From assembly GCF_009834535.1 (NCBI RefSeq), contig NC_045696.1, forward strand, positions 73,720,001 through 73,784,000: a stretch of DNA of 64,000 nt, given 5' to 3'. Below the pieces are notes generated by a model. It made no database searches. It was not told where the DNA came from and worked only from the letters and a program-made list of their open reading frames with translations. The first letter of the stretch is position 1, and the number at the start of each line of letters is the position of its first letter. Source of the stretch: Camelus ferus. Lineage: Eukaryota. This document shows, in pieces, positions 2,480-57,905 of the stretch. The position numbers were made by a program, and so were the translations under genes.

Positions 2480-5400
2480 CTGTAAGAAAACACAGCATCC
2501 TCAGTATTTAATATTTTTTAAAAAGTTCTAGCCTAAATATGACATATCAATATATATGGAAAAATTTTCTAAAATGAGCAGTAATTTACTTCAAAGTTTA
2601 AAAATAAACTTTTAAAATATCAATATAATTTAAAATACTGAGATTTTTCAATAAACTGCCTTATTTACACTATAATTTAGCATTTAAGTGTGCTAAAAAT
2701 TTTTAATTACTTTCTAAGTATCAGTTTATATGTTTTCTAATTTCTAATTCAATCTAATTTTCTAGTTATGGAAACCAATTTAAAAAGAAATTTTCCTTCA
2801 AATTGGCATGAATTTTCAGACTAGATACCACCTTAGTAGTGTTGCCTTAAAAGCATAATCAAACACATTAGCCAGGTTATCCCTACAATATGTGCTCAGA
2901 TAGCAGAACCTTAAGTGTCAGTGTACTAAAAGGAGTGCTTCGTGACCATTAACATAAGTATCATCTACAGACTCTAAATATTTACACGATGTAAAATAAA
3001 GGAATTACTGATGTAAGCAAATAAGTCACCAGTTATTAAAGCAAACGAAAAGATCAACCTGGACCTGGCTTATTTTACTAAATTTCAAAAGAGGAAGGTT
3101 TTAAAAAGTGGGAAGGAAGAGAAATAAGACAGCTAAATGATGGGTTTTTCCCTTTAAAGAAATACACTTCAGTTTCCTACTGGCTAAGGGAAATGAGTAT
3201 AGCCTAAGTAAACTTACCCAGTTGCGATGTCTTTCCTTACTTTCCTGATTGTACAGAACAGTTCCTAACAGTTATTTTAAACATGGGAGACTAAAAAGAA
3301 GAATCGCACTAGGGCAGGTACTAAGGCTACAGTACAAAGCACAGCTATTGTGGAGCCTAGTGACTAAAGAAGTAACTACAACTAGGAAGGCATAAATAAG
3401 GGACTCTAAAGTGAAAAAAGTCTTGACCCTGTCCTCAGGAATTCACAGGTAGATAATACAGGATACAAAGTGAGTAAGAGATGGGGGTGGGAAGAGAGAG
3501 CTAAAAACTTTTAAGCATGTATCGTATTTCCAAGAGTGTATTATTTACGTTCATCATTTAATGTTCATTAAAGTCACTTTAAGAAATATCTCAATTTTAC
3601 AGCTGAGAAAACAATTTGCCCATAGTCGTAAAATCAGCAACTGAGCCAGCCAATTTCATATCCAGTCACCTAATTCCAAATAACATCCACTTGTTAACTG
3701 CCAGAATCTATGTTAAGGAATAAGAACAAAGTCCCTGTTCTAAAGGTAACCATAACCTCAGAAAGGATACTAAACATTCCTATAATACTACTGTACAGCA
3801 TTAGTGATAGGAATTAAAAAAATGGCAATATTAGGTGGAATGTGAAATTATGCCACCCCCAGATGTGGAAATTTAGGGGAATTCATCAGAGTATTATCCA
3901 TTTAAAGTGAATATTAAAAACAACTAGAATTTTACCAAGTAGATAAAGATGGGATATTCATTCCAGACAATCAATCTGCAAGGATTACGAGAAATAAAAT
4001 GCCTTAACCCTGAACTGGCGATATTATCACCAATAGTTACCTTCAAAGAAAAGGAGAGGTAAAAAGGCATCCTTAATGGTGTATATTTTATACAATACTT
4101 TGATGGCTATTATAAACCATAACAAAAACATCTGGAATAAAGAGTAGGTGATTATTACTGCATATAAGCATTCACATCTAAGTAATTCCAGTGAACTTTC
4201 TAGATTAAAAAAATTTTAACTGATTATTTACAGTTAATAGATGACACTGAGACAAACAACTAGCACTCAGAAAAAAATTAAAGCTTATCCCTGCTCCCGA
4301 TACATTATACGAAACAATTTCTAATTGGAGAGAAAAATTTAGTCATTAAAAGAAAAACAAACTCAAACTGGAGGGGAAAATATAAATGCGATTCTGAATG
4401 ATCTACAGGTAGGAAAGACTTTGCCAAACAACATATAAAATGCACAAGTCATAAGGCAAAAGTCAGAAAAAAAAAATCCAGTACAAAAAAATTTGAATGC
4501 CTGCACAGGAACAAAAAAAAAGTCAAAAGAAACAAATATTTGCCACATACATGAAAAGAGAAAAGACTAACTTCCACCAAATACAAAAAGCTCTTACAAT
4601 TCAGTAACAAAAAAGACAAAAAACATGTAAAGGACAATATGCTTTCAGAAAATGCCTTTCAAGCAAACGGAAAGGTAACACGTATATCTTCTGGAATGGC
4701 ACTAATTAAAGTTTGATAAAACCCCAATATTGGCAAACGTGGAAACTAGACATTTCCTATACTGGTGGAAGGAATGTGTGGGAAAACTAACAAGATCTAA
4801 AAATTTAAACGCCCTTTGATCTAACAAATGCACTTCCAGGAATTCACTCTCCAGTCACAAGGAACCTTTGCTGCAGCATTGTTTTTAACAGTGAAAGACA
4901 TGAAAAGGCAACCTGACAACAGTCTTAAATCTATTAGGCATGATGGAGAAAGACAGACATGGACAGGACACAAATATATTTTTACACTCTACTCGAGTTA
5001 TTCTTTCACATAAACCTATTTCTTTACAATTAAAAACTCAAACTTATCCTTTAAAAAATCTTAATAAACTCATAAGATATTTATCAGGTGTCTACTCTAT
5101 ACAGTTCACTGTGCTAGGAAAGAATGGAGAACATGAGAATTCAGATTTAATTTTTTGACTTCAAGGAGATCATAACGTGGCTTGGAGACACAAGATAAAC
5201 CAGAAAACAACACATAAAGCTTAAAGAAAATATTAAATACACAATTACACAGACAATAAAGGCTGCAGTTACAGGTGGGAAAGGTCATTTCAGGCCACAG
5301 GTAAATTAGCAAAGACTTCAAAGGAAACAAGTTATAAACTGACTCTCCAGGGGAGTTAGTTTAAGTTGTGAAATAGTGGCTCTAAATAAGTCAGTATTAG

Positions 5401-7075
5401 CCTTCTAGATATAACATGCAATCTTTTGAAAATTGAAAAATTTTTGTGTATTATTGGTTTCATCTTAAAAATATTGGAAGATACAGCAACACATAATACA
5501 TGCATTCCTACATGGCAACCAGATTAAACCTGAGCAGCATCTGCTTCTTTTACAGAAAGACACAATGTGCCCTCCCATCACTATCTTGTGCTTCCCAACC
5601 TGCTTAATCATTTACATAATCTGTTTGGTATGTTTAAGCATTTTAATTTCTTAGCCCTGGCAGAGAAATGGCAGTGACAATGACCAAAACTATAAACACA
5701 GGAAAGTACAATAACTTCTTAATTTATGAAGGAGGACCTGAAAAGAACTAGCTTGCAACAAGACAGTAAATACTGGAAAACAACTGGGAATAGAATAAGT
5801 CAAGCTAAGGGAAAACCAGATATTAGGATCAAGCTAAGAAATTTATAGCCGAGTCAAATGACCCTGGTCAGTAAACATCTTGATCTTCAGATCAATTTTA
5901 GGCAGTAGCTGTATGCCAAATGGATGACATATTTTACATATTAAGTATAAATGGGGAAAGCACCAATTTTTAATAATATAACACCACCGATTTTAACCAT
6001 TATGTCAAAGGCATCTTTAAGTCATGAAAAATGGGGTCACCCCCTCCACCACGTGGGGCATAGTGTTTGCTTTACAGGAGGTTAAAATTACTTGAGGTTT
6101 ACGGCAATTTTTGAAGCAGTGTAGGATGAAATCAATCCACAAGAACTCATTTGTATAACACTAAGTTAATTCTTTCCCTCATTCATTTCTAAGTGTATAT
6201 TTATCTCTACATTCTAACTAATTAAAAGGAATAAAGGAAATGGCTATCTTTCAAAGGTATCTTTACAGCATTCAATAATTAGCGTGAAGCTATTTATCTG
6301 AACTAATGCCTGCAGTTCTCTTTCTCCCTCTCCCTCTTTTTTCTGTCTTTAACAAGACTTATCCTATTCAACAGGCTAACAATCTCTTCAAATAGTTATC
6401 TATTGTACAAAACTGAAGAAGATGCGAGCATACTACTTTCTGGGAGGTAATTTGGGAGGGAAATCCTTCCCTTGTATTCAGACATACAACTATATACAGA
6501 GTTGACCACTAGAGTCACAAAGGTGAGAAATGTTGAAAGTAAACAAATGAAAAGTAAAACACAGTTCTGTGAACAAAACATCAAAATGTAAGAAAACTGA
6601 AGAAATTACAGAAAGTTATCAGAATTAAGAGCAATATAAAGCTTCAAGATTTCAATAAAGAAATGGTCAGAGCTTTCAAATTCTTTAAAAAAAAAAAGTC
6701 AAAGAAAGTGTTACTAAGAATTCCTTTACAGCAGACTGTTTTAGAGTATCAAATTTTACAGCTTGACACTCCAAAAAAGAAACAGAACTGTTAAGATTAT
6801 CAAACTGAAGCATTTTTATCAAAAAGTAGCTTTTTTACTGAAGTACTGAGAAACCAACCAAGAGCCCAAGGCCCGCAACTGAAATATGACTTGTTTTCTA
6901 AGTGTATAAAGCAATATTATAAGGAACAGAATTTTTTTAAAAGAAAAATCTGCTGCAGAGTGTAAGTAGTTCACTGGATATAACTTTCCTACAACTCTGA
7001 AACTGTAACATTGTAAGTAAACCAAGAAAACATGGAAAAAAAAAAAAGACGAATTAAATTATTTTAAATACTTAC

Positions 7076-7185
7076 ATCTTCTCTAGGCAGTTTATTTTCA
7101 TTGTCTCCTTCAATTCTCACCCGAACCACACCAGATTTGTCCACTATTTCTTGAATAACTTTGCCATTTTTCCCAATTACTTTTC
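7076..7185 (-). CDS. FXR1: FXR1 exon 10 (110 nt, KH2: [37 protein letters not shown])
   Basis: GxxG loop IGKNG; acceptor ttattaaag (AAG type), GTAAGT donor. Confidence 0.97.
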
Positions 7186-10100
7186 CTTTAATAAGAAGAA
7201 ACAAATATAATGATAAGTTAAAAACCAATATTATCATTTCAACACCAGCCCAAATAATTTATGACTTGCTATCAAATTAGAAAAACCAAGCAAAGCTCCA
7301 CCTTGTCACTCTCAGAGTGAGGAATTTTATCCTTGGTCTGAAACCAGCTTCTCTTCAGTACACCTAAGGTTACTACTATTAACTGGGATTCATAGTGCTG
7401 CTCACGTGAGACATTTTCAAAGTCTTAAGTATTTTTCAATATGTTCTGTATCATTTTTATATTTTTATAATATCAAGCCCAACCCATTTCAAAAGCTTGG
7501 AAATATAAATGAAGACAGAAAGAAAACTTATTTTGGCATTAATCATATCAATTTATTACATATTACATATATTATTCAAACAACTAATAAATTCAATCTT
7601 GCATTTATTTTCAAGTTCCTATTTGTTTAAAAGACACCTAGGACTTGAAGATTCTTATAAAATGAATATTCTCTTCACAGAAATAAAATGTTTACATTTA
7701 ACAAGCATTACATTCTATACCCATAAATTCTTAAACTACTTCACAGATATGCAACTACATACAACATGTATATGTTTTGCTGTCTTTCTAGATATGAAAT
7801 ACTGTAAAATGAAATAAAATTCAAATTATTTACCTTCATCACACTTTGTAAGTCTGTCAAATAGCAGTTATTGAGTATCCAACAATTAAAGGAGAACATG
7901 AAGATGCTCTTCCCCTTAGGAACGCACTTGTTATAAAGCTAACACACACTCAAATAACAAAGCAATACTGAGTAGTGTTACCTGGTAACAAAAGTAAATA
8001 TTCAGGTAACCACCACTATATGGAATAGATGTATCCCTTATAGTTAACAGCAATACCATATTTGTTATTAAGTCCCAGTTCTCAATTAATTAAATTTTTA
8101 TACTATATCAGCAATTTATTAGGACAATAAATTTCGGTTGAAAGAGGTTAAAATGGAAGTATTTCCTATTGCATGCTTAAGAGAACAGTTTCCAATAAAG
8201 AATAAATAAAGGAACAATGGCAAAAGTAAGCCAGCCAATACAGCAGACACTATTATAGGATTTTCTATCCCTAGTCTCAAACCTCCTTCCCCAGTAACCC
8301 TAAATTTAAAAGCAGCAGCAACTGAGAGGGAAAAAGAAAAAGAGTAGGAGAGGAAATTCACATGATGTACGTCTTCTCTGAGTAGCCCTAGCAGCATCAT
8401 ACAAAAGCAACCTTCATGTTAACAGTGACGCTCAAGCAGCAACTCCATCCTTGACCCTGCTAAAAATAAGCAAATATCTTTTCGAAAATACAAAAGTCAG
8501 GTTGATATATCATAATCACTCCCCAAAATCTTTGCCCCTTCCTTCTTGTGAACTGTACCAGTGGTGAGTGAACATTCATCATCCTTCTGGGGTCCATGGC
8601 AAGGATCTAGTTGACAGTTTTATTTAGTCCCACCAGAGACTGTTAATATTTTAACTGATCATTTCCACAGTTCAAATTTCAAAGCATACTGACAAATTGA
8701 AGCAGACCTGTAGTATAATTTGAGCATTGAGCATAAATGCTGAAGGGACAGAGTAGAGAAGTGATTAAGGAAGGCTTCCAGAAGTTGAAAGGTTTCAATT
8801 CACTTTCAAACCAATTATCATATAATAAATTTCTTTTGATTTGGGAGGGATGGGAATTTTTGGTCAAAGTCTAGAACTCTTAAAACCTGAATATGTATGG
8901 AAAACCTCTCTGCTCTGTAACTTACCCAAGCAGTCCTCATTCTCTTTTACTCCTCAGTCCTCTTTTTCTCTTTCACTTGAACTAAGAATGCACTATTTTT
9001 TGAAAGGCTGCTTCACCCATAAAACACTTGAGACAAATGTAGTATTATTATACACAAAAAACAATTGAAGTTTTCCACTACTTTTGAGTATTTCACCAAC
9101 ACATGTAATACTCACTAATACGTATTTCCTAAACAGTAAACACATAACCCCTAATCACCAAAGCCAACCAAGCCAGAATAGAGGGGAAAAAAGAAAAAGG
9201 ACTGGACCTAACAATACATAGATAAAATGAATAAAAAGAATCTGAGAGCTACAAATACATCCAACTTCCTTATTTCTGAAGTATCAGGAATTTTTACTCA
9301 AAACTAACATTACCAAAAATTCAACACCAAGGCTATCTTCTATTGAATTGTTGGGTTGGAAACAACACTGACTCCCTTGGAAACACTCACCTCCAAATCA
9401 TTTTTACAAGAAATCTAAATTAAATTATGTTCTGTAAAAGGAGCAACCACAATGTTAGTATGTCAGTGATGGAGTATGATTTAAGTAAAGGGGATCATTT
9501 TCAAAAGCAGCTTTCTCATCAAAGATGTTTTCATTTGACAAAAATAAGCATTTGGTAACATTCTATTATATTAACATTTATTAAAATTATACAGAATTCA
9601 TGAAGCTTATATTCAATTTTAACATATCAACTCATTTCTCCAGCAACTCAGTGTACAGTGAACAACAGTTTCCAAGAACAGATAAAAGTGGAGCTTAGTT
9701 AACTGGCAAGATGTCATACCCATCCAAATGTGGGGGCAGAAGTGAAAAGCTTTTTAGATAACCAACAGTTGAACACAAAAAACTATCCAAATTCTTGTGT
9801 TGTGGACTACTGTTTCAAGTACACTACTTGTTACTGGCCAAAACAAACATCTTTTTTTTTACAGTGGAAGTGTACTGTTTTTTTAAATCTTCTCCTACTG
9901 ATGTTTTGACCGAAAAACACATACAGAATTCTTTTCCTAAAGCCAGAACAGAAGTAACTATATATAAATGGAGCCCAAGCGGCTCTCTTTTACTAAGGTC
10001 AAAAAACTAATCAATAGATAATCCTCTCCTCCCTCCAAAAAAAAAAAAAAAAAAAATCATTCCCCTAGTAAACTTCACTACTTTATGTTGATGCTTATTT

Positions 10101-12325: not shown

Positions 12326-12496
12326 CTCTCCATAGATTCTAAATGTTCCAGTATCTTCATCTAGCTCAATAGCTGTAACTCCAGGAACCTTCCTAGCTTG
12401 CTGTATATTACTACCATGCGTTCCTATCGCCAGGCCCATCAAATCTTCTCTCACAACAAATTCCTCATGAAAAGCTGCTGCAAGTTGTTTTGTGCA
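12326..12496 (-). CDS. FXR1: FXR1 exon 8 (171 nt, KH1: [57 protein letters not shown])
   Basis: GxxG loop IGTHG; tttactag acceptor, GTAAGC donor; overlaps ORF 12269..12454. Confidence 0.98.
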
Positions 12497-13025: not shown

Positions 13026-14567
13026 TAAAAAAAGGAATAAAGAAAATTACTTGGGATCATATAATGGAAAGGAGAAAAAGTTTGATCAGTCTATTTAATC
13101 ATGGTCACAGAAAACAGTAATTTTAAAACAATTTTCCAGAATTACTGATACAGGCAGTTTTTCAATTCAGATGATTCATGTTTCAAAACTCATTCCCATT
13201 TTCCTTGTTTAGAACTTTTAAATTAATAAGGGCACTTGTATACCTGTCCTAGAGAAACTGATGTATGTTTATCTTTAAGACAGTGTGTGTGCATGTGTGT
13301 TTGGGAGATGGTGGGAGAAGCTAAGTCTAATAGTGTGGCAGTGAAGAATAGAAGACAGGAGTACCTTAGGACAGGGTAGAGAGAAGCAACAATCAGCTTT
13401 TTTTTTTAAAAACTACAAGCTGTGTGTCCTTCCTCTCTTACACAATGGTTGTATAGTGAACTACTTACTAATGAAGTGCATTGTGACTGACAGACAACAG
13501 GGTAGAAAATACAGAGTAAAGAACCAGTAGTACAGTTCTACTGGAAATCCCTAGCGATTTTCTAAGCTCTCTGGCACCTGTCATCTAAGTCCTAAGAAAT
13601 GACTCAACGGGCATTTAGCAGACAAAAGGCTATGTTTGAGGGGTTCCGGTCAAGATGGCAGAGTGGTAGGACCACGAGCTTGCCTCTCCTTGGGACTACA
13701 ATGAAACCACAACTGAATGCTAAACAACCATTTAAACCACTGAAAAAAGACTGGAACCTAGTAAAAAAAAAGATCTTCTGCAACTGGAAACAAAGAGGGA
13801 ACCACAGTAGGAGGGGCGTGCTCTCGATATAACTGGGTCCCATACCCCCTGGGTGGGCAACCCACAAGCTGAAGATTTGTTACAGAGGACCTCCCACAGG
13901 GGTGAGAGCTCTAAGCCCCACATCAGGCTCCCCAGCTGGGGGAAGAGGAGGAGACCCCAGTACCTCTGGTTTTGAAGGCCAAGGGGGATTGGCTCTGGGA
14001 GCCTCATGGGACTGGGGAAAACGGAGACTCCATTCACTTGAGGCATACACAGAAACTAATGTGCACCCGGTCCAAGGGAAGAGGCAGTGATTTCATAGGA
14101 ACCTGGGCCAGACCTGCCTGCTGGATTTGTAGGGTCTCCTAGGGACACAGGGGGTGGCTGCGGGTCACTCAGGAGACACAAAGGCTGGTGGTGGACATTC
14201 CGTGAGTGTTAATCTACATGAGCTTTCCTGGAGGCTGATATATTGACTGGATCATTAGCACCAAGAGACCTAGCCCCACCCAACAGCCTGTAGAGAAGTC
14301 TCAGGCCAAACAACATACCTGGTGGGAACACAGCCCCATCCATCATCAGACCTCCTGAGCCACAAAGGCCTCTAGACACAGCCCTGCCCACCAGAGGTCC
14401 AGGACCAAGCTTCACCCAGCAGTGGGCAGGCACTGGCTCCTCCTGCCAGGAAACCTGCATAAGCCTCTAGCCCAGACTCATCCACAAGGGGCAGATACTA
14501 GAAGTAAGAAAACAATAATCCCAAAGCCTGTGGAAGGAATCCACTAACACATAGAAAGATAGACCAA

Positions 14568-15460
14568 ACGAGGTGGCAAAGGAATATCTCCCAGGCCAAG
14601 GCACAAGATAAAATCCCAGAAGAAGAAATAAGAGATAAGGCGATAGCTAATTTATCTGAGAAAGAGTTTAAAGTAATGATGGCCAAGATGTTCAGAGAAC
14701 TCAAGAGGAGTATAGACGCTCAAAGTGAAGTTCTTACCAAAGAGCTGGCAAACATAAAGAATACCCAAACAGAGTTGAAGAATAAAATCAATGAAATGAA
14801 CAGTACACTAGAAGGAAACAAGAATAGACTAAATGAGGCAGAAGAATGGATCAGTGAGCTAGAAGACAGATTCGTGGAAATCACTACTTCAGAACAGAAA
14901 AAAGAAAAAAGGAATGACGATAGTTTAAGAGAACTCTGGGACAACATGAAGTGTTCTAATATTCACATTATAGGGGTCCCAGAACAAGAAGAGAGACAGG
15001 AAGGACCTGAGAAAATTTTTGGAGAGACAGTAACTGAAAACTTCCCCAACTCGGGAAAGGAAACAGTCCCCCAACTCCTGGAAGCGCAGAGAGTACCACA
15101 CAGAATCAACCCAAAGAAGAACACAAGGTACACACCAAGGTACATAGTCATCAAATCGACAACAATTAAGGATGAGGAGAAAATACTAAGATTAGCAAGA
15201 GAAAAGCAATGAGTAACATACAATGAACTCCCATAAGGTTATCAGCTGATTTTTCAGCAGAAATTCTACAGGCCAGAAGGGAGTGGCACGATATATGTAA
15301 AGTGATGGAAGGGGGAAACTTAAAACCAAGAATACTCTATCCAGCAAGGCTCTCGTTCAGACTTGATGGAGAAATCAAAGGTTTCACAGATAAATAAAAA
15401 CTAAAAGATTTCAGCACCACCCAACCAGCTTTACAACAAATGTTAAAGGACCTTCTCTAG
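14568..15460 (+). pseudogene. L1 ORF1p pseudogene (coiled-coil/RRM/CTD)
   Basis: ORF 14676..15212 is L1 ORF1p-like (LRELWDNMKCSNIHIIGVPE, AQRVPHRINP, TPRYIVIK). In-frame ACG at 14568 is the likely decayed start; TGA at 15210 and small frameshifts precede ...PALQQMLKDLL* ending at 15460. Confidence 0.9.
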
Positions 15461-15519
15461 TCATCAAACCATAAAAGAGAACAAAAAGAAGAAAGAAAAA
15501 AAAAGAGAGACCTACAAAA

Positions 15520-15795
15520 GATTACTTTGGCTGTCTGGGGTCTTTTGAGGTTTCTTATAAATTTTGGAACTGTTTGTTCTAGTTCTGTGAGTAATGTTGT
15601 TGAGTATTTTGATGGGGGTTGCGTTGAATCTGTGGATTGCTTTGGGTAGTGTGGCCATTTTGATAGTGTTGATTCTTCCAATCCAAGAGCACAAGAAATC
15701 TTTCCATTTCTTTGTGCCATTTCGGTTTTCAGAGTATAGGCAACCTCCTTGGCTAAGTTTATTCCTAGGTATTTTGTTGTTTTTGATGTAATGGA
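15520..15795 (-). mobile_element. Inverted L1 ORF2 fragment (end of RT / post-RT region)
   Basis: Minus strand encodes [15 protein letters not shown] and [29 protein letters not shown], hallmark L1 ORF2 motifs. Confidence 0.9.
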
Positions 15796-15915
15796 AATGT
15801 CTCTGCCAATTATAAAATTCTAGTTTTTGAAGTGAAAAAAAAGTGAATGAAGGGCCGCAAAAGGCAAAATATCCTTCTTTTTATGGGTGACTTCTATTCC
15901 ATTTTACATCTACAT

Positions 15916-15960
15916 TATATATATATATATATATATAAAATATGTATAAATATATATATA
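15916..15960. repeat. (TA)n microsatellite
   Basis: Interrupted TA dinucleotide run inside the composite element. Confidence 0.9.
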
Positions 15961-16210
15961 CTGCATCTCCAATATCTATTCAACTATTGATATGCACTTA
16001 AGATGTTTCCATATCTTGGCAATTATAAATGATGTTGCTGTTAATAGCAGGGTGTATGTATGTTTTTGAGTTAATTCTTATTTTGTGGTTGGTTTTATTC
16101 CTTTGATAACTATGTAAGTTTAAAAAGCCAAAGCTCTAAACATTCAAAGAAACAACGAACAGTACATACACGTAAATTAAAAACCACATGTGCAGTAAAA
16201 AAAAAAAAAA

Positions 16211-16725
16211 GATCTATCAAGCCATGAAAGACATAGAAGAAACTTAAAAGTCATTATTACTAAATGAAACAAGCCAGTCTGAAAAGGCTACAAACTGTAG
16301 GATTCCAACCAAATGACATTCTGGAAAAGGCACAGCTACAGAAACAATAAAAAGATCGTAGTTTCCAGAGGTTTGGGGAGAGGAAGGGAGGGAGAAATGA
16401 ATAGATGGAGAACAAGAGATTTTTAGGGCAAATGAAATTATCCTGTATATAGTATAGTGGTGGCTACATATCACTATTCATTTGTCAAAACTCACAGAAT
16501 GTACAATATGAAGAGTAAACCCTAATGTAAACTATGGACTTTGGTTGATAATAACGTCCCCATGCTGGTTCATCGATTGTACCAAATATGCCACACTGAT
16601 AAGGGATGTTGAGGGTAGGGGAGTATATACGTGTGGGTGGGGAGGGCTATGTGGGAACTGTATTTTCTGCACAATTCTGTTGTGAACCTGAAACTGCTCT
16701 AAAAGAATAACTATTAAAAGATTTG
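16211..16725 (+). mobile_element. Ancient L1MC1/2-like 3'UTR end (inside the TSD-bounded composite)
   Basis: ctatcaagccatgaaagac...ccctaatgtaaactatggactttgg...tgtgaacctgaaactgctctaaaa resembles L1MC 3' termini. Confidence 0.75.
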
Positions 16726-16925
16726 TTTTAAAAAAGGCTACGTTTGAGAAAAATAATAGAAAAAAGCAATTCTTCGAAGGACATATGACTCCAGGTATTA
16801 GCCAAAAAAACAGATCCCAGGTTGCCTTACCTAACAGTCAAGTAGTTTTGAGACGTGGAACTTAAATAATGTACTCATGAAACTAAATGGGACACACATA
16901 AAACCTTTTCAGTAAACCTACTTAC

Positions 16926-17042
16926 TTCTAAGTGCTTAGTGGCCTCTTCATTTCTGGACATAAGCATCAACTTTGTACGAATACTCCGCAAATGCATGTC
17001 ACTTAAAATATTTACTCTCTTCACAGTTGCTTCACTGGCAGA
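16926..17042 (-). CDS. FXR1: FXR1 exon 7 (117 nt, [39 protein letters not shown])
   Basis: tgtttag acceptor, GTAAGT donor. Confidence 0.97.
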
Positions 17043-17380
17043 CTAAACAAACAAGTTAATCACTCAAAAACTTAAATGCCTTTTCAAGATAATACAAACA
17101 CAACCTTCCACATAGGGCCTTCCTTGATTTTCGTCTACTGTACTTCTCTCCTCACCTAACATGCCCACCTCCCATTAGTAATCTTTCATTTCTTAACCTT
17201 TGTATTATTTAGATCTGCTCTTCAAATTATGATGGGGAAGTGGAATCCAAGAATCCACACATTAAGAATTTTATTATGTTAATAATGTCATACAAAAAAT
17301 TTTCCTCCTTACTCCAGAGGAGATTTTAAAAATTAACATTATATAACTGCAAAATATTTTTTCTCCCACACTGTATTTTA

Positions 17381-21576: not shown

Positions 21577-22601
21577 AATTATATGTAAAACTATTTTAAA
21601 ATATATAAAACAACAAAAATGGTTCACTGGACCCAACTATTTTCCCTAGTATACTGAGGATTAAGAAAAAAAAAAAAAAAGGAAACCTAAGAACAAGGAA
21701 AATGCCCATTCCAGGCACTATCTCAGAAAGGCAGTTGAGCTAAACAGACTGAAGTATCTCTTGGTGACCTGTAGTGGATGGGTGCACCCTTAGCTTGAAT
21801 GCTGAAAAAATGGGTCTTAAAACTACCTGTTCTAATTCTTTTTTCACCAAAGAATAACCTTCTAGGAATCTGGCCTCCTACATAAGTTTACCTCTGAAAA
21901 AGACAATAAACCATTTTGGATTGCCTTGAGACTTTCTCACTGAATATTAAATGTCAGATTCTGTTTTATACTTACATCCACCTCTTTAAGCTTCATTAAT
22001 AACTATACCCCTGACGGACAAAGCCATCTCATAGACCCAAATAAACCTAATTTCCTGGCCTGAATCAAAATGCAATGGATTTGGCTCCACTTGAATGTTG
22101 CAGGTCAAATCAAATCCTTTACAAAATGAACAGCATTATCTCGACACAATAAAAAAATCATTTTAACAACCCAGCATTAAAACTGTGCCCTAGTGTACTA
22201 TACCTGAGATGTTGATTACTAAACTTACGACTATGTCATTAGAGTAAAAGCACCTCATAGAAATTCCCTTACTTCAGATTTCACTTACATCTCCAAACTA
22301 TTCCAAGGGAGCAATTAACACTCTAAGGTAATGGCCCTCATTGCTCTAACATTCTAAGCTTCTTCAAATCCAAAGAAGTTTTAAAAAAGCAGAAGACTAA
22401 GGAGTGCCCATGAGAGACTTAAAAACACAGTAGTTCTCAGAATGAAGAAGGAAGGCTACAGTTTCCTGGAATAGGGGATGAAATATGAAGAATCAAATTT
22501 CAAAAGCCTGTTTCAGGACTCTTTCTACCAAATGAATCCAAGTCAAACCTTATTATAAAATGGTCTTCAAATTGCAGCACACAATCAAACTAAGACACAA
22601 T

Positions 22602-23031
22602 GGAGAAACAGACTCACAGACACAGAAAACAAATTTATGGTTACCAAGAGAGGAAGGGGGTGGGAAAGGATACAATGAGAATTCAAGATTTGCAGACACT
22701 GGGGGGTGGGTCGATCGCTCAATGGTAGAGTGCATGCTTAGCATGCATGAGGTCTTGGGTTCAATCCCCAGCATCTCTACTTAAAAAAAAAAAAAAAAAT
22801 TGCAGACACTAACTACTACATATAAAATAGATAAATAAGTTTATACTGTATAGCATAGGAAACTATATTCAGTATCTTGTAGTAGTAACTTATGGTGAAA
22901 AAGAATATGAAAACAAATATAAGTATGTTCCTATATGACTGAAGCATTGTGCTGTACACCAGGAATTGTCACAACATTGTAAGCTGACTATACGTCAATA
23001 AAAATTTTTTTTTTAATTTTAATTTAAAAAA
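22602..23031 (+). mobile_element. L1 3'UTR fragment interrupted by a SINE
   Basis: gaaacagactcacagacacagaaaacaaatttatggttacc...acaacattgtaagctgactatacgtcaataaa; TSD aagaca(c/t)aat at 22592-22601 / 23032-23041. Confidence 0.85.
22701..22799 (+). mobile_element. tRNA-derived SINE (Vic-1-like, short form) nested in L1
   Basis: tRNA-like head, A17 tail, TSD ttgcagacact at 22690-22700 / 22800-22810. Confidence 0.92.
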
Positions 23032-43600: not shown

Positions 43601-45049
43601 AAAGTAAGATGGTAAACAATCTTCACTAAAACTTTCAAAAAGACCATCTTATTACAGAATCTTATGAATTTAAAAAGTGTATTTACAGCACGTGATATCA
43701 TAAAAATATGAGTAAAAAGAAATGTTTTACCTACCATTGACATGCTGAAAATAATTCGTTAAGGCATAGTAATCCTTTTCTACTTTTCAACAGATAACCA
43801 GGAAAAATGCCAGTATGCCAGGAAAAAATGCATACATCCATTGAACAAGAATTGTATGGCCAAATAGCAAGAATTTGAAATTTTTTCATGGGGTGGGAAG
43901 ATGTTGATGCAAAAATGAACCTTATCTACCCTTGAGAGGAAAGGTATGATAAGCCCATTCTTTGTGCATTATGCCACAACTGTATCTGCAGTTGTTCAGA
44001 GAACGCAACCATTAGGCTTAAGAAGTTAATGAAGTATCTACTCTTGTCTGACACCAAGTTTTAAATCTAGACTGATAATATAAAATTTGTCACGCATTAA
44101 AAGACTCCTTTCTACCAGTCATTGTTTTTACTTTATGCTGACCACCTAAACAGATTTAAACTTGTAAAAAGCTTAGGGAGATCGTTTAGACGCCAACTGT
44201 GATTCCCCACTACGCTATTACCACGTGACAGCTAAACCAATTCCACACAGCTCATTAGTAAACAAGGAAAGGCAAAAACAACGCTGAAAGTAAGAGATTA
44301 CGACTACCTATTAAATTAAAATACTGTGGGGGATAAAAGATACGCTAAAACGAAACTCAGTGAGAATACATTCTGCATACCCACAATATTCCTGTTATTA
44401 GGAGACGGCCCTTAATAAAAATAGCCAGGACTCTCAAACATTTGAGATGCTGGCTTAGTGAGACTGACTGACAGACAACAGCTGGGGAGATTTTGTATTG
44501 ATCTTGTAACACTGAAGGCACACTCTGGGAGAAAAGGAGAATTGGGAGAAGAGACCGTTATAATGGCAAAACTAAACTAAGGATTTCATTTTCATTTCTA
44601 TGACCCCTACATCAGAAGCCCCTACTGAATTCCTCTACTCTCGAATTCCTCTTCCATGTGCCAGCCCCGATCCCATAGCAATGCATCTCCTTCCTCCCGC
44701 TGGAAACTAACAAAAACCTCGGGGGAGGGGGGGGCAAAAATCAACACCTTCTTCCAAAAACACCAGGGAACTGATTAAAAGCAAAAAACCTAGTCACGTC
44801 CCCACCTGTGTCTCCCTGATCCCGTTTCACGCTTTAATTCTTAAAGGCTAAAACTCTTCGCCGTTTCTTCCGTAATAGAGGGGCTAAGGCGCCGCCCAAT
44901 CTCCCAGGCTGCAAAAAATATTTCTACTAGCCACATTTCAAGGGTTTCTGGTTTTCTCTCTTTGATCCTAACCCTTAATCCGGTATCCGCTTCCCTTTCA
45001 GACACTAAAGTTTATTAGCACAAAACCCTAGTACAAAGGTGAATTCTTA

Positions 45050-46030
45050 AGATTCCGCGACGCGCCCCCCAAGGGGGTGGGGAGGGGTCAGAGCAGCGAG
45101 CCGAGGCGCTCGCGCTCGGCACAGTCCGAGGGGCGGGGGAGCGGCTGTGACCACACAATCCCACTACCTCCTTTCACGACTCCCCCACCTCCCGGAGCTC
45201 AGGCCTGCTCCCGAGGAGCTCCCTGCGGCCCTGCAGCCACTCAGCTTCTCCTCACCGGCCCGCCAAGGGCCTCGCACCCAAGAAGAAGGTTCACGAGTAG
45301 AAAAACTCAAGAGGTGTCCAACGTGTTGTTTCAAAACATAACGGAGCCGGGGCCCCCGAGACCGTTAAACCGCGGGTGGAGGGGGGAGAAGCGATGAACC
45401 CAGCGGCCTCGGGCTTTGGCCTGGCCGCCTTTTTCGACCCCAAAACTCAGTCTCCTGGACCACCACCCCTCCCCCAAACCTGCCCCAGCCGCCAGAATAC
45501 CCAACAAAGCGCCAAAAGGCTCGGTACCTTGTAGAAAGCCCCGTTGGAGCCGCGAACCTCCACCGTCAGCTCCGCCATGTTGGAACCGCAAAGGCCGCTG
45601 GGAAGAGATTCTAGAAACTTTCCAACCAGAGGGGAGGAGGGGGGAGGGGCGTGAAGGAGGCAGGGGGAGGGACGGGGAAAACAGGGCGGGGACTGGGATC
45701 CCCCGCCCCACACCCCTGGGGTCTCACCTAGCCGCTCCGACTCTCCCTGTGGGATCCCTCCGCCCTTTACATCACTCGCCCACGGCTCCGCCCGCCGCCG
45801 CCGACGCCCAGTTTGCCTCCCGACACAATCGCCCGACCTTTGCTGACCCGCCCCTACGTCCCCGCCTCCCAGTGCCCGCTGCTTGCCCGCCCCAGCGGGT
45901 CGGTCCCTCCAGCCGCCGGGGAGTGAACTGACCGGGCACCGCCTGTCCCGCGCATCTGTATTCCTCTGCTCTCGGGCATCTTGCCCTGAAACTTCCTTGA
46001 AATTCTAGTAGCCCTGGAGTAGCGTCCTCA
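45050..46030. promoter_or_regulatory. FXR1: CpG island / FXR1 promoter and 5'UTR
   Basis: Abrupt GC- and CpG-rich block around the ATG with multiple GGGCGG/CCGCCC GC boxes in an otherwise CpG-depleted window. Confidence 0.9.
45528..45578 (-). CDS. FXR1: FXR1 coding exon 1 (51 nt, [17 protein letters not shown])
   Basis: ATG in CCAACATGG Kozak context at 45578-45576; donor AAG|GTACCG. Confidence 0.98.
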
Positions 46031-46868
46031 CCTCGGGAAGAGCAACTTTGGGGGCTCCAATTGTCCATTGGCACAAATTTTGGAGGAAAGAGGAAGACTA
46101 AAAATGTGCATGCTATGTGCTCTGAATTCTTTCGCCTAGCTCAATTTTTAAAAATCGGTGGCCTTCTCTTGGCTCAAATTCCACAGTTCCACACCACCTC
46201 ACACAGTTCAGTCGAGCCCTCTCCCCACCTGTTACAACGTTAGCTGCTGAAAAAGTCAAGCTAAGTTCAACTTTTTGCGGTTCAATTTAGATGTGTTCAT
46301 AACCTGCAATAGAGTTTAGGGTAATCCTCATTGTTAGAAGTAATCAGGGAAACTTAATAGGAGACGACGTTTTCCCCTGCTGCAATGAATAGGAATGTCC
46401 ACAAACAGGATCAAAGCAGAATCAACTTGTGTGTTTTTTCTACCAGCACCTACCCCAATACTGTTAAGCATTATAATGGAGATGTTTTTAGTATCTATTA
46501 TTTTCCCAAAGCAAGGCCTGTGGAAATACTACTTAGAAGTATTCTTTTGTGTGTTGTATTACTATTTTGACAAAAAAGCTTCAGAAAAGGATGATTTGCT
46601 GGCACTCTACACTCAAGGAAATGCCCACAGGCATAGCCCTAGTCTTTCTGAAGAAAGGAGGTCCCTAAAAAATGTACATAACAGTTTGATCAGCACTTCT
46701 ACATCTCTAAGGATTGGGGAAAGAAATGGAGCCCGTAGAATTGCCCCATATTACTATATACGGAATACTTTTTTTAAAATACTGATCATGGTGAGGAAAA
46801 TGTAAACAAACTAAACACACTCGAGTAATAACCACTATTTATTAAGGGCTTCATCTGTCCAATGCTTT

Positions 46869-47019: not shown

Positions 47020-47664
47020 TTTCAACAGCTTTATTGAGATATAATTCACATATCATACAATTCATTGATTTAAACTGTAAAATTCAATAGTTTTTAGTAT
47101 ATTCACAGAGTTGTGCAGCCATCACCATAATCAATTTTAGAACATTTTCACCACTCCAGAATAAAAACTCTATACTTGTTGGCAGTCACTCCTATTTCAC
47201 CCCAATCGCCAGAGCCCTAGGCAACCACTAATCTACTTTTTGTCGCTATTAGATTTGCCTAGTCTAGATATTTCATATAAATAGAAGCATAGAATGTGTG
47301 GTCTTTTATGGCTGGCTTCTTTCAGTTAGCACAGTGTTTTCAAGGGTCAGCCATGTTGTAGCATATATCATCATTCATTCCTTTTTATTGTCAAATATAC
47401 CATTGTATACCACAACATTTTATTTATTCATTCAACTGTTGGTGGACATTGCCGTATTTTCACTTTTTTAGCTGTTAGGAATAATATATGAAGATTACAG
47501 TTATTGTATAGACAGACCTTTTAATTATTCTTGAGTATATGGTTAGAATTGGAATTGCTGACTCATAAGGTAACTGCATGTTTAACCTTTTGAGGAATTG
47601 CCAGACTCTTTTCCAAAGCAGCTGCACCATTTGCATTCCCACCAGCAATGTATAAGGGTCCTAT
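47020..47664 (-). mobile_element. L1MB-like 3' end
   Basis: acagctttattgagatataattcacatatcatacaattc...ggcaaccactaatctactttt...ccaaagcagctgcaccatttgcattcccaccagcaatg. Confidence 0.85.
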
Positions 47665-54700: not shown

Positions 54701-56185
54701 GAAAGAGGCTACACAGTGTAATTTACGTAGCATAGGCGATCATATTATTTTATTAATATAGACTGAGTATTTAATAATAATACTAATAAATGATAGAAAG
54801 CAAAGTGTCTGATTAATGTAAACCAGACATAAACTCCTCTAGAGCAACCATTCACTTTTGCTTCTGCACATTATCACGCCTAGTACTCAAAATATTGTAG
54901 GCTCCAAATATAAGTGAATGAATGAGACAGGAATAATAAAAATAAATACCTAATCTATGTAACAACATGGAAAATGCCTGACAATATGTGGATAAAAACT
55001 AAAGCAGGAAAGTTGATCTGCACAATGATTACAACTATGTAAAACTTATATGCACAAATCGATAAGAACAAGATGAGCTTAAACAAATGAAAATAGTTTA
55101 ATTTCTTAGAGTGATTGCAATGTTGCTTTTTTTCCCCCCTGTGTTTATTTAGAGTTCCATTGATAATGTAATTTAATATGAAAGAAAACTATGAAAACTT
55201 GATCAGAGGGCAAGAGAACTCTCTATGGCAGGCCCAATTCTATTGTGATTACCCTATATGATCAAGTCACCTCTCTGAGGAAGCACCATTGTGTAGAACC
55301 TGAAAAAGCTGATTCCAGATTTAACAAGGTACAATGGGGACAGTAGTAAAAGGGACAATATAATAGTCAGAAAAAAAATTGTGTGAATGCCCCCAAAGTG
55401 TAGAATGACTGGTGTATAGAGTACAAGGGAGATGTGGCAAGAAATGACCTTGGCTAGAGATCCCTGGAAAACAACCAAGGGGTTTAAATTTTATACTAAG
55501 GACAAGGGGAACCCATTAAGAGTAAAATAAAGCAAAGATGTGGCTCATGCAAGACCAGAATCTCACACTGGAGAGCCTAAAGTTTCATCAAAATGTAGAG
55601 CTTAGAGCAAAGACTATCACAAGATAGCTGACTTGCCTGTCCAGGTGACCTAAGGAAAATTCTCAACTTCTGTAAGTATGAAACATTGAAAATAGATGAT
55701 CTCAAATTCTTATCATATGGGGCCTGTGACTAACGTACTAAAAATTTGCTCACCTCCTCTTTTCTCTGAATATTTTCCAGAATTTATTTAGAAAATTATA
55801 GGTCTCCTGATTCCAAGAATTATTTGCTTTTAGTTCTTTATTAGTGTTACTGTTATTGAATTATATTTCTTTTTAATACATTTTTTATTTTGAAATAATT
55901 TTTAATTTACAAAAAAATTACCAGGTTAATACAGAGTTCCCACACACCCTTTAGATTGTTTCCCCTAATGTTAATATCTTACATTACCATCATACATTTG
56001 CTAAAATCAAGAAACTGACATTGCTATATTGCTATTAACTGAATTCCAGACTTTATTAAAATTTCACTGATTTTTCTACTAATATTCTTTTACTGTTCGA
56101 GGATTTGATCTATGACACCAAATTGCAAATAGTTACCATCTCCCTTTGTCTCCTCTGGCCTGTGACAGTTTCTCAGCCTTTCTTT

Positions 56186-57905
56186 CTTTCTTTTTTTTTT
56201 TTTTCTTATTGAGTTATAGTCAGTTTACAATGTTGTGTCAGTTTCCAGTGTAGAACACAATTTTTCAGTTATACATGAACATACATATATTCATTGTCGC
56301 ATACTTTTTCACTGTGAGCTACCACAAGATCTTGTATATATTTCCCTGTGCTATACAGTATAATCTTGTTTATCTATTCTATATATACTTGTCAGTATCT
56401 ACAAATTTTGAACTCCCAGCCTGTCCCTTCCCACCCCTCCTCCCCATTGGCAACCACGAGTTTGTATTCTATGTCTATGAGTCTATGTCTGTTTTATATT
56501 TATGTTCATTCTTTTTTTTTTTTTTTTTTTAGATTTCACATATGAGTGATCTAATATTGTATTTTTCTTTATCTTTCTGGCTTACTTCACTTAGAATGAC
56601 ATTCTCCAGGAGCATCCATGTTGCTGCAAATGGTGCTATGTTGTCATTTTTATGGCTGAATAGTATTCCATTGTATAAATATACCACTTCTTCTTTATCC
56701 AGTCATTTGTTGATGGACACTTCAGCTGTTTCCATGTCTTGGCTATTGTAAATAGTGCTACTATGAACATTGGGGTGCAGGTGTCATCCTGAAGTAGGGT
56801 TCCTTCTGGATATATGCCCAGGAGTGGGATTCCTGGGTCATATGGTAAGTCTATTCCTAGTCTTTTGAGGAATCTCCATATTGTTTTCCACAGTGGCTGC
56901 ACCAAACTGCATTCCCACCAATAGTGTAGGAGAGTTCTTTTTTCTCCACAATCTCTCCAGCATTTGTCATTTGTGAACTTCTGAATGATGGCCATTCTGA
57001 CTGGTGTGAGGTGATGCCTCATTGTAGTTTTGATTGGCATTTCTCTGATAATTAGTGATATTGAGCATTTTTTCATGTGCCTATTGATCATTCATATGTC
57101 TTCCTTGGAGAATTGCTTGTTTAGGTCTTCTGCCCATTTTTGGATTGGGTTGTTTGCTTTTTTCTTATTAAGCCATATGAGCTGCTTATATATTCTGGAG
57201 ATCAAGCCTTTATCAGTTTCATCTTTGACAAAAATTTTCTCCCATTCTGTACGTTGTCATTTTGTTTTTCTCATGGTTTCCATTGCTGTGCAAAAGCTTG
57301 TAAGTTTGATTAGGTCCCATTTGTTTATTCTTGCCTTTATTTTTTTTAATATTTTTAAAATTTTTTATTTATTTTTGTATTATTTAGTTACTTTATTTTG
57401 GCAGGTCGGGGGAGGTACTTAGGTTTATTTACTTTTAGAGGAGGGGCTGGGGATTAGGACCTTGTGCATGCTAAGCATGTGCTCTACCACTTGAGCTATA
57501 CCCTCCCCCTCTTGCTTTTATTTCTATTGCTTGGGTAGACTGTTCTAGGAGAACATTTTTGAGATGTATGTGAGATAATGTTTTGCCTATGTTTTCTTCT
57601 AGGAAGTTTATTGTATCTTGTCTTATGTTTAAGTCTTTGATCCATTTTGAGTTGATTTTTGTGTATGGTGTAAGGGAGTGTTCTAGCTTCATTGATTTAC
57701 ATGCTCCTGTCCAGTTTTCCCAGCACCATTTTCTGAAGAGATTGTCTTTGTTCCATTGTATATTCTTGCCTCCTTTGTTGAAGATTAGTTGATCAAAAGT
57801 TTGTGGGTTCATTTCTAGGCTCTCTATTCTGTTCCATTGGTCCATATGTCTGTTTTTGTACCAATATAATGCTGTTTTGATTACTGTAGCTCTGTAGTAT
57901 TGTCT
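56186..57905 (-). mobile_element. 5'-truncated lineage-specific L1 (ORF2 C-terminus + 3'UTR + poly-A)
   Basis: ORFs 57471..57956 ([26 protein letters not shown]) and 56636..57091 (CCHC region, [14 protein letters not shown]...[18 protein letters not shown]); TSD ag(c/t)ctttcttt at 56175-56185 / 57906-57916. Confidence 0.93.
57343..57509 (-). mobile_element. tRNA-derived SINE (Vic-1-like) nested in L1 ORF2
   Basis: TSD tcttgc(c/t)tttattt at 57329-57342 / 57510-57523; tRNA-like head. Confidence 0.9.

Follow-up and report, generated by a model that had tools for sequence, protein, structure and literature searches.

The window analysed here is a stretch of 64,000 nucleotides from Camelus ferus (contig NC_045696.1, positions 73,720,001 to 73,784,000) that spans most of the FXR1 gene, encoded on the minus strand, and carries in FXR1 intron 7, antisense to the host gene, the mosaic L1-derived element that is the subject of this work (positions 13624-16748 of the window, including the flanking repeats). 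An earlier note, made from the sequence of this DNA, had already assigned the element to intron 7, and the mapped exons on both sides agree: exon 7 (16926-17042, minus strand) and exon 8 (12326-12496, minus strand) both have AG/GT borders, and the donor site of exon 7 lies 177 nt from the element. The exon numbering rests on sizes that we take to be 94, 72, 149, 94, 117, 171, 79 and 110 nt, all of which were located in the window. In exon 5, 42/42 residues are identical to those in the structure of the FXR1 Tudor domain (3kuf), and the minus-strand exon 1 lies in a CpG island at 45000-46200. With the element, intron 7 is 4429 nt long, and without it 1321 nt; no second copy of the element is present within the 64-kb window. 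RNA sequencing runs contain 0.13-0.44 of the words of the region 13300-17100, a share on which no claim of expression rests.

The element is bracketed by a 17-nt direct repeat on the plus strand (13624-13640 and 16732-16748), with 16/17 identical positions and a TG/CG mismatch, that encloses 3091 bp, precisely as described in the earlier note, including the CpG-type nature of the mismatch. The final G of the 5' copy may belong to the element itself. The 5' copy of the repeat directly adjoins the first base of an L1 5' untranslated region (5'UTR), and the 3' copy the final base of an L1 3' end; the rebuilt insertion site, AC/AAAA, resembles a site of the L1 endonuclease, with its consensus TT/AAAA. 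Taken together with the intact 5' end and the endonuclease-like site, the duplication supports a single insertion via target-primed reverse transcription, and the same three features uphold the proposal that the entire mosaic was retrotransposed as one RNA. The alternative is a nest of independent insertions, in which pieces of younger L1s were added next to an old L1M fragment that the intron already contained, with the recurrence of the 17-mer being due to chance. The window does contain 49 (among 200) complex repeat pairs of at least 17 nt with at most one mismatch, the tail of the element comes from an older type of L1 than the head, and there is no poly(A) at the end. Nevertheless, given the base composition, the 17-mer would recur at a distance of no more than 60 positions from the 3' end with a probability of ∼3e-7, no inner duplications were found, and the inner junctions recur in the second copy described below, so that a nest of insertions is very unlikely.

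The head of the element is that of an L1 in the sense orientation. The 5'UTR (13641-14567, plus strand) is 63-65% identical to the L1 loci L001 and L022-L024, aligned from the same start. It opens with a run of G, followed at 13651-13659 by CAAGATGGC, which occurs nowhere else in the window and which we take to be a YY1-type core; the CpG observed-to-expected ratio is 0.12. It is followed by a dead open reading frame 1 (ORF1; 14568-15460, plus strand) that matches both C-terminal Pfam domains of the L1 ORF1 protein, PF02994 (E = 2.7e-11) and PF17490 (E = 1.6e-14). The reading frame has lost its start codon, is interrupted by stops at 15210 and 15395 and by one frameshift right after the first of these, and retains the natural stop at 15458-15460; its identity to the 18 aligned L1 ORF1 relatives (of 1037 matches), porpoise and pig among them, is 52-61%. 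A short tandem duplication at 15124-15145 adds three codons compared with all 18. Between 15295 and 16748, no match to a sense ORF2 was found in a comparison with 28 L1 loci. Thus, three claims of the earlier note, a complete L1 5'UTR with a YY1 motif, a full-length decayed ORF1 and the absence of a sense ORF2, all stand.

Past the ORF1 stop, the structure departs from that of an ordinary L1. The spacer between the two reading frames, joined to the ORF1 stop via a shared TAG, is represented by a remnant (15461-15519, plus strand; matching L002 1122-1182 and L024 8545-8610) that ends ∼20-25 nt before the position of the ORF2 ATG. Both L002 and L024 have a long spacer, of which the element retains the last ∼60 nt, so the inter-ORF spacer claimed previously is present but greatly reduced. 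Because autonomous L1s can also have short spacers (68 nt in pig L1A1; PMC6501411, supplements), this deletion may have been inherited from the parent L1. Next comes an antisense scrap of ORF2, denoted scrap A (15520-15795, minus strand), which corresponds to L1 ORF2 codons ∼860 to 760, is 73-79% identical to L005, L024 and L008, overlaps the spacer by two nucleotides (AA) at the 15520 junction, and contains internal deletions. A linker of 57 nt (15796-15852, minus strand), possibly a degenerate extension of scrap A, separates it from the antisense scrap B (15853-16070, minus strand; ORF2 codons ∼1250 to 1185), which is 67-70% identical to L005 5326-5548 and to an L1 end at 56.6-56.8 kb of the window, and is interrupted near 15915-15960 by an expanded (TA)n run. 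The only ORF2 material in the element consists of these two antisense scraps with their deletions. Thus, where antisense pieces of ORF2 and of an L1 3' region had been proposed, the antisense ORF2 is confirmed, but the second piece is the end of ORF2 (codons ∼1185-1250) and not a 3'UTR.

This layout bears on the possibility that a single L1 insertion was rearranged by twin priming or by a post-insertion inversion of its own ORF2. The 2-nt microhomology at the 15520 junction fits such an event, as does the similar identity of scrap A and ORF1 to living L1s, given which scrap A could stem from the parent L1; by the same token, a greater age of scrap A compared with the head is not supported. However, the 5' part of the element is in the sense orientation, the tail is not a 3' end of the young lineage, and the same structure recurs in the second copy. 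The order of the scraps, codons ∼860 to 760 and then ∼1250 to 1185, is non-collinear, and simple twin priming is thereby excluded. Nor does the element fit the description of a twin-primed (5'-inverted) L1, with one inverted 5' segment and a cognate sense 3' part, because its head is in the sense orientation and its tail is non-cognate. Rearrangement of a single L1 at this locus is hardly credible, although twin priming or inversion may have been the route by which the master element of a family was first formed.

The 3' part begins with an unplaced segment of ∼130 bp (16071-16196, plus strand) for which no match above those of shuffled sequences was found when it was aligned alone to four L1 3' regions. 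It contains an ATTAAA signal at 16176, 15 nt before a run of 14 adenines (16197-16210, plus strand), a spacing with a background frequency of 6.8%. The signal and the run are where the earlier note had them, but the run need not be a poly(A) tail, because an alignment that runs through it places it on the A-rich motif of L1M-type 3' regions (score 113, compared with a shuffle maximum of 62); it could be either an expanded form of this motif or, possibly, an internal poly(A) left from a shorter precursor of the element. The remaining ∼520 bp (16211-16731, plus strand), with another ATTAAA at 16713, constitute an old L1M-type 3' end, presumably L1MC-like, with a score of 95 to an old L1M piece at 47069-47495 of the window (shuffle maximum 40) compared with 24-48 to the younger L1 3' ends in the window, in accord with the unrelated older L1 3' end that had been suggested. 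Within the 3' half, folding was not out of the ordinary (z between -1.7 and +1.5, with 12 shuffles each).

Whether the element is a member of a family or a single accident can be gleaned from a search for further copies that used chance reading frames, such as the minus-strand frame 15880-15515. One protein, P0121, a 149-residue NCBI entry from a 1027-bp contig, stands far above the other 34 matches (E = 2e-39). Aligned with 15902-15460, with three frameshifts allowed, it is identical at 123/149 residues, and the identity extends over all segments: 14/17 residues in scrap B, including its right junction, 14/19 in the linker, 15/19 in the deletion zone, 63/73 in the core of ORF2 and 17/21 in the reversed spacer. 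In five ordinary L1 loci, examined on both strands, the corresponding values are at most 3/17, 8/19 and 7/19, 0-49/73 in the core, and at most 10/21, i.e. at the chance level outside the core. The internal deletions of scrap A are common to the two copies, whereas ORF1 is full length with few breaks. Furthermore, P0121 ends at the same stop codon as the element, a codon that exists only when the spacer is cut as it is in the element, and four junction and deletion motifs that are present in P0121 were found in 0/296 other ORF2-like proteins (the top-ranked parts of 6840 and 6894 matches).

The divergence of the two copies is informative with respect to their relationship. The identity of 123/149 residues translates into ∼8-9% DNA divergence (simulated band ∼6-12%), a value slightly flattered by the choice of frame; in the simulations, 2.3% DNA divergence yielded 92-98% identity and 20% yielded 54-69%. 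Among 66 core residues, nine differ, six of these private to the window copy and three to P0121, and because there are private changes on both sides, the two copies appear to have decayed independently. Close relatives probably carry the locus at no more than 2.5% divergence; DNA sequencing runs of three organisms contain a share of 0.46-0.48, possibly limited by a technical ceiling, of the words of 13300-17100, where the flanks account for 18%. The neutral divergence expected for a non-camelid orthologue is ∼20%. Because 8-9% is too far for the locus of close relatives and too near for non-camelids, P0121 is best read as a paralogue, which makes it very probable, as judged from sequence comparison, that the insert is not a one-off. 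The lineage-specific family with ORF1 as its only reading frame that the earlier note had envisaged is thus supported by the same junctions and deletions at ∼8-9% DNA divergence. Camelids split from other artiodactyls 55-60 million years ago and among themselves 16.3 million years ago (PMC12127551).

The contrary view is that the insert is a one-off chimeric retrocopy, formed either by template switching, from a host RNA to that of an L1, or by read-through of an L1 with a deletion; P0121 would then be a segmental duplicate of this locus or an orthologue from another species. The mosaic does resemble captured genomic DNA, and only a single other copy was found, the flanks of which were not seen. 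Indeed, several observations weigh against the existence of a family: P0121 is a protein translation without DNA or flanks that covers 15460-15902 and stops to the left of the junctions at 16070 and 16200; no further copy with the junctions is present among the best 150 of 6840 representatives or the best 120 of 6894 proteins; and the exact junction patterns have no matches in viral and prokaryotic contigs, as expected for mammalian DNA, nor do these contigs contain loci related to P0121. In addition, there is no surviving poly(A), with no A-run of at least eight nucleotides before the 3' duplication, although loss of the tail by decay is expected at the age of the element. On the other side of the ledger, the divergence of 8-9% exceeds the 2.5% or less of close relatives and falls short of the ∼20% for non-camelids, and a random 1027-bp contig is far more likely to come from a family with many copies than from one duplicate. 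On balance, a one-off is unlikely, and the insert appears to be a dead copy belonging to a lineage-specific family of the HAL1 type, with a probability that we put at roughly 0.85. The range of this family is probably camelid; on this view the copy is full-length, and the family is non-autonomous and a new or unnamed one among the HAL1-type elements. From a divergence of 4-5% per copy and commonly assumed rates, the age of the element would be roughly 20-45 million years.

HAL1 ('half-L1') elements, which are non-autonomous derivatives of L1, are reportedly those described by Smit in 1999 and by Bao and Jurka in 2010. As portrayed in several studies (PMC5753468, PMC5322556, PMC5786205, PMC13756887), HAL1s encode only the ORF1 protein (ORF1p), are flanked by duplications and originated several times in mammals. 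What was found in the camel element corresponds to these traits: an L1-derived 5'UTR and ORF1, no ORF2 coding capacity, a target-site duplication, and the presence of the junctions in a second copy (P0121, within 15460-15902), along with a presumed dependence on the ORF2 protein (ORF2p). It differs in having its own junctions, a 3' half assembled from pieces of antisense ORF2 and the end of an old L1M, no visible poly(A) and, by implication, an independent origin. The closest counterpart is the pig element HAL1_SSc (L1A6), given in the supplements of PMC6501411 as 3016 bp long, with a 5'UTR of ∼930-945 bp and an ORF1 of ∼900 bp. The two share the size of ∼3.0 kb, a related cetartiodactyl L1 head and a captured 3' half that ends in an L1-type 3' end. 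Compared by eye, however, the pig element has retained ∼290 nt from the beginning of the long spacer, and the camel element ∼60 nt from its end; the pig element also has no antisense ORF2 scrap, another middle and a tail of a younger type. Six short junction motifs gave no matches in the HAL1_SSc consensus file, in which line breaks can hide matches. With a different spacer junction and a different 3' half, identity with HAL1_SSc was rejected, and the possible novelty with respect to described HAL1s, raised in the earlier note, holds for this one, the sole HAL1 consensus compared. Literature searches, which covered portions of PMC8605555 and PMC6726744 and did not extend to Repbase or Dfam, revealed no camelid HAL1; the family may already be catalogued in these databases.

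Two other systems illuminate how such an element could move. In cell culture, mobilization in trans is seen for an RNA that has the L1 5'UTR together with a functional ORF1, but not when ORF1p is an RNA-binding mutant (PMC11260458). This construct, ORF1mneoI, is the experimental model for the movement of the camel element, with the same 5'UTR-ORF1 RNA, the supply of ORF2p in trans and the need for an RNA-binding ORF1p, but it is a synthetic human construct without antisense scraps. The second system is L1 3' transduction (described in PMC13756887), where transcription that bypasses a weak poly(A) signal would account for the ATTAAA and A14 followed by 520 bp of an older L1 end; the differences are that the carrier here lacks ORF2, the inner poly(A) is unproven, and no source locus was found.

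Under the scenario that we favor, the master of the family would have had a single origin: in some L1, all the sequence from a point shortly upstream of the ORF2 start was lost, and the remaining 5'UTR-ORF1 head was fused to ∼1.2 kb of L1-rich DNA, comprising the two antisense ORF2 scraps, the unplaced piece and the old L1M 3' end, which would have supplied the polyadenylation signal. The master would be transcribed from the internal L1 promoter, its ORF1p would coat its own RNA, with the need for this protein in cis suggested by the behavior of ORF1mneoI, and the RNA would be copied in trans by the ORF2p of autonomous L1s; mobilization in trans is suggested by the integration hallmarks together with the cell culture data (PMC11260458). 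One such copy would then have integrated at AC/AAAA in FXR1 intron 7, with a duplication of 16-17 bp, and decayed neutrally. If A14 is a true tail, a 2.57-kb form would first have landed in an L1M end and would later have been read through.

The changes that accumulated in scrap A are unevenly distributed between the strands. On the strand of the element RNA, compared with five reference L1 pieces, A>G changes affect 13/47 conserved A as opposed to T>C changes at 7/93 conserved T (p = 0.002), and with single references the excess yields p values of 1e-5 to 3e-3 each; in the 5'UTR, ORF1 and the tail, the two types of changes are symmetric. The residues that are common to both copies and differ from those of ordinary ORF2 are mostly of the I>T, Y>H, F>L and W>R types. 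On the ORF2 strand, 7/10 such residues are of the T>C type and none is of the A>G type, compared with means of 1.07 and 1.44, respectively, and a maximum of 5 among 280 controls (of 293 aligned). The excess was thus largely inherited from the master. Local transcription of FXR1 as the cause of the skew was rejected, by inference, because the shared changes predate the insertion into FXR1. With respect to the neighbors, the changed sites amount to 9/21 with a 5' U (0/17 on the other strand), 1/9 with a 5' G and 6/11 within UAG. The order of preference listed for ADARs in Table 3 of PMC3113232 is 5' U>A>C>G, with a 3' G, and the changed sites in scrap A lean in that direction.

These patterns are compatible with a tentative explanation, namely that the founder RNA was hyper-edited from adenosine to inosine in the antisense ORF2 scrap while the latter was paired with sense L1 RNA, and that the edits were fixed by reverse transcription in all descendants. 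Scrap A indeed pairs with sense ORF2 (-248 kcal/mol, compared with -74 kcal/mol for shuffled sequences), which is trivial for an antisense piece. Several considerations render this explanation rather doubtful: the A>G pattern was noticed only after the fact; when the two strands are matched for triplets, the excess is reduced to p = 0.04; the five reference pieces included no camelid ORF2, and one of the references, L022, is skewed in the same direction, though less strongly (5/42 vs 2/85), and another in the opposite direction (0/39 vs 9/79); scrap B deviates in the same direction but not significantly (5/21 vs 3/44, p = 0.1; 5/33 vs 5/71 with the left part included); and a fold search found no partner strand for a scrap A duplex inside the window copy. 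Literature searches, including parts of PMC4982230, turned up no description of a HAL1 or L1 family in which ADAR edits have become fixed.

Several observations on other sequences were made along the way. In L022-L024 (∼3970-8900), three high-coverage contigs, L1 units are arranged head to tail as in an L1-derived tandem array, with the first unit internally deleted (the end of ORF1 is cut and ORF2 jumps from the endonuclease region to the middle) and followed by a second L1 5'UTR and ORF1. In L019 (100-700), the end of an L1 ORF1 is abruptly joined to phage- or bacterium-like sequence, probably in a chimeric contig. No relatives of L1 ORF1 were found in viral contigs. Three mammalian L1 proteins, P0058, P0343 and P0388, are filed under Delftia, Neisseria and Salmonella as hypothetical proteins and represent host contamination of bacterial assemblies. 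Within the window, a lineage L1 3' end with an ORF2 tail (55871-56953, minus strand), which served as a reference, adjoins an older L1M end, and at 22583-23004 the 3' end of a young L1 is split by a short interspersed element (SINE; ∼22698-22800), one of at least eight related copies in the window (17377, 21416, 22698, 46863, 57336, 58843, 60535 and 62796). By their appearance, the SINEs in the window are of a camelid kind.

The family would add one more independent origin of HAL1, a finding that is useful rather than surprising given that HAL1 families arose repeatedly. Taken together with the pig HAL1_SSc, it would indicate that the same build, with an L1 head, a cut spacer, ∼1.1-1.2 kb of captured DNA and a borrowed L1 3' end in an element of ∼3.0-3.1 kb, was reached twice in even-toed ungulates. 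It would further provide a lineage marker and expose an annotation gap, with standard masking expected to report five unrelated L1 matches in place of one element. If the editing explanation were true, the family would preserve in the genome a fossil trace of ADAR activity on an RNA in the course of retrotransposition, and the antisense piece of ORF2 would become a candidate docking arm by which an RNA that encodes only ORF1 finds L1 mRNA together with the nascent ORF2p.

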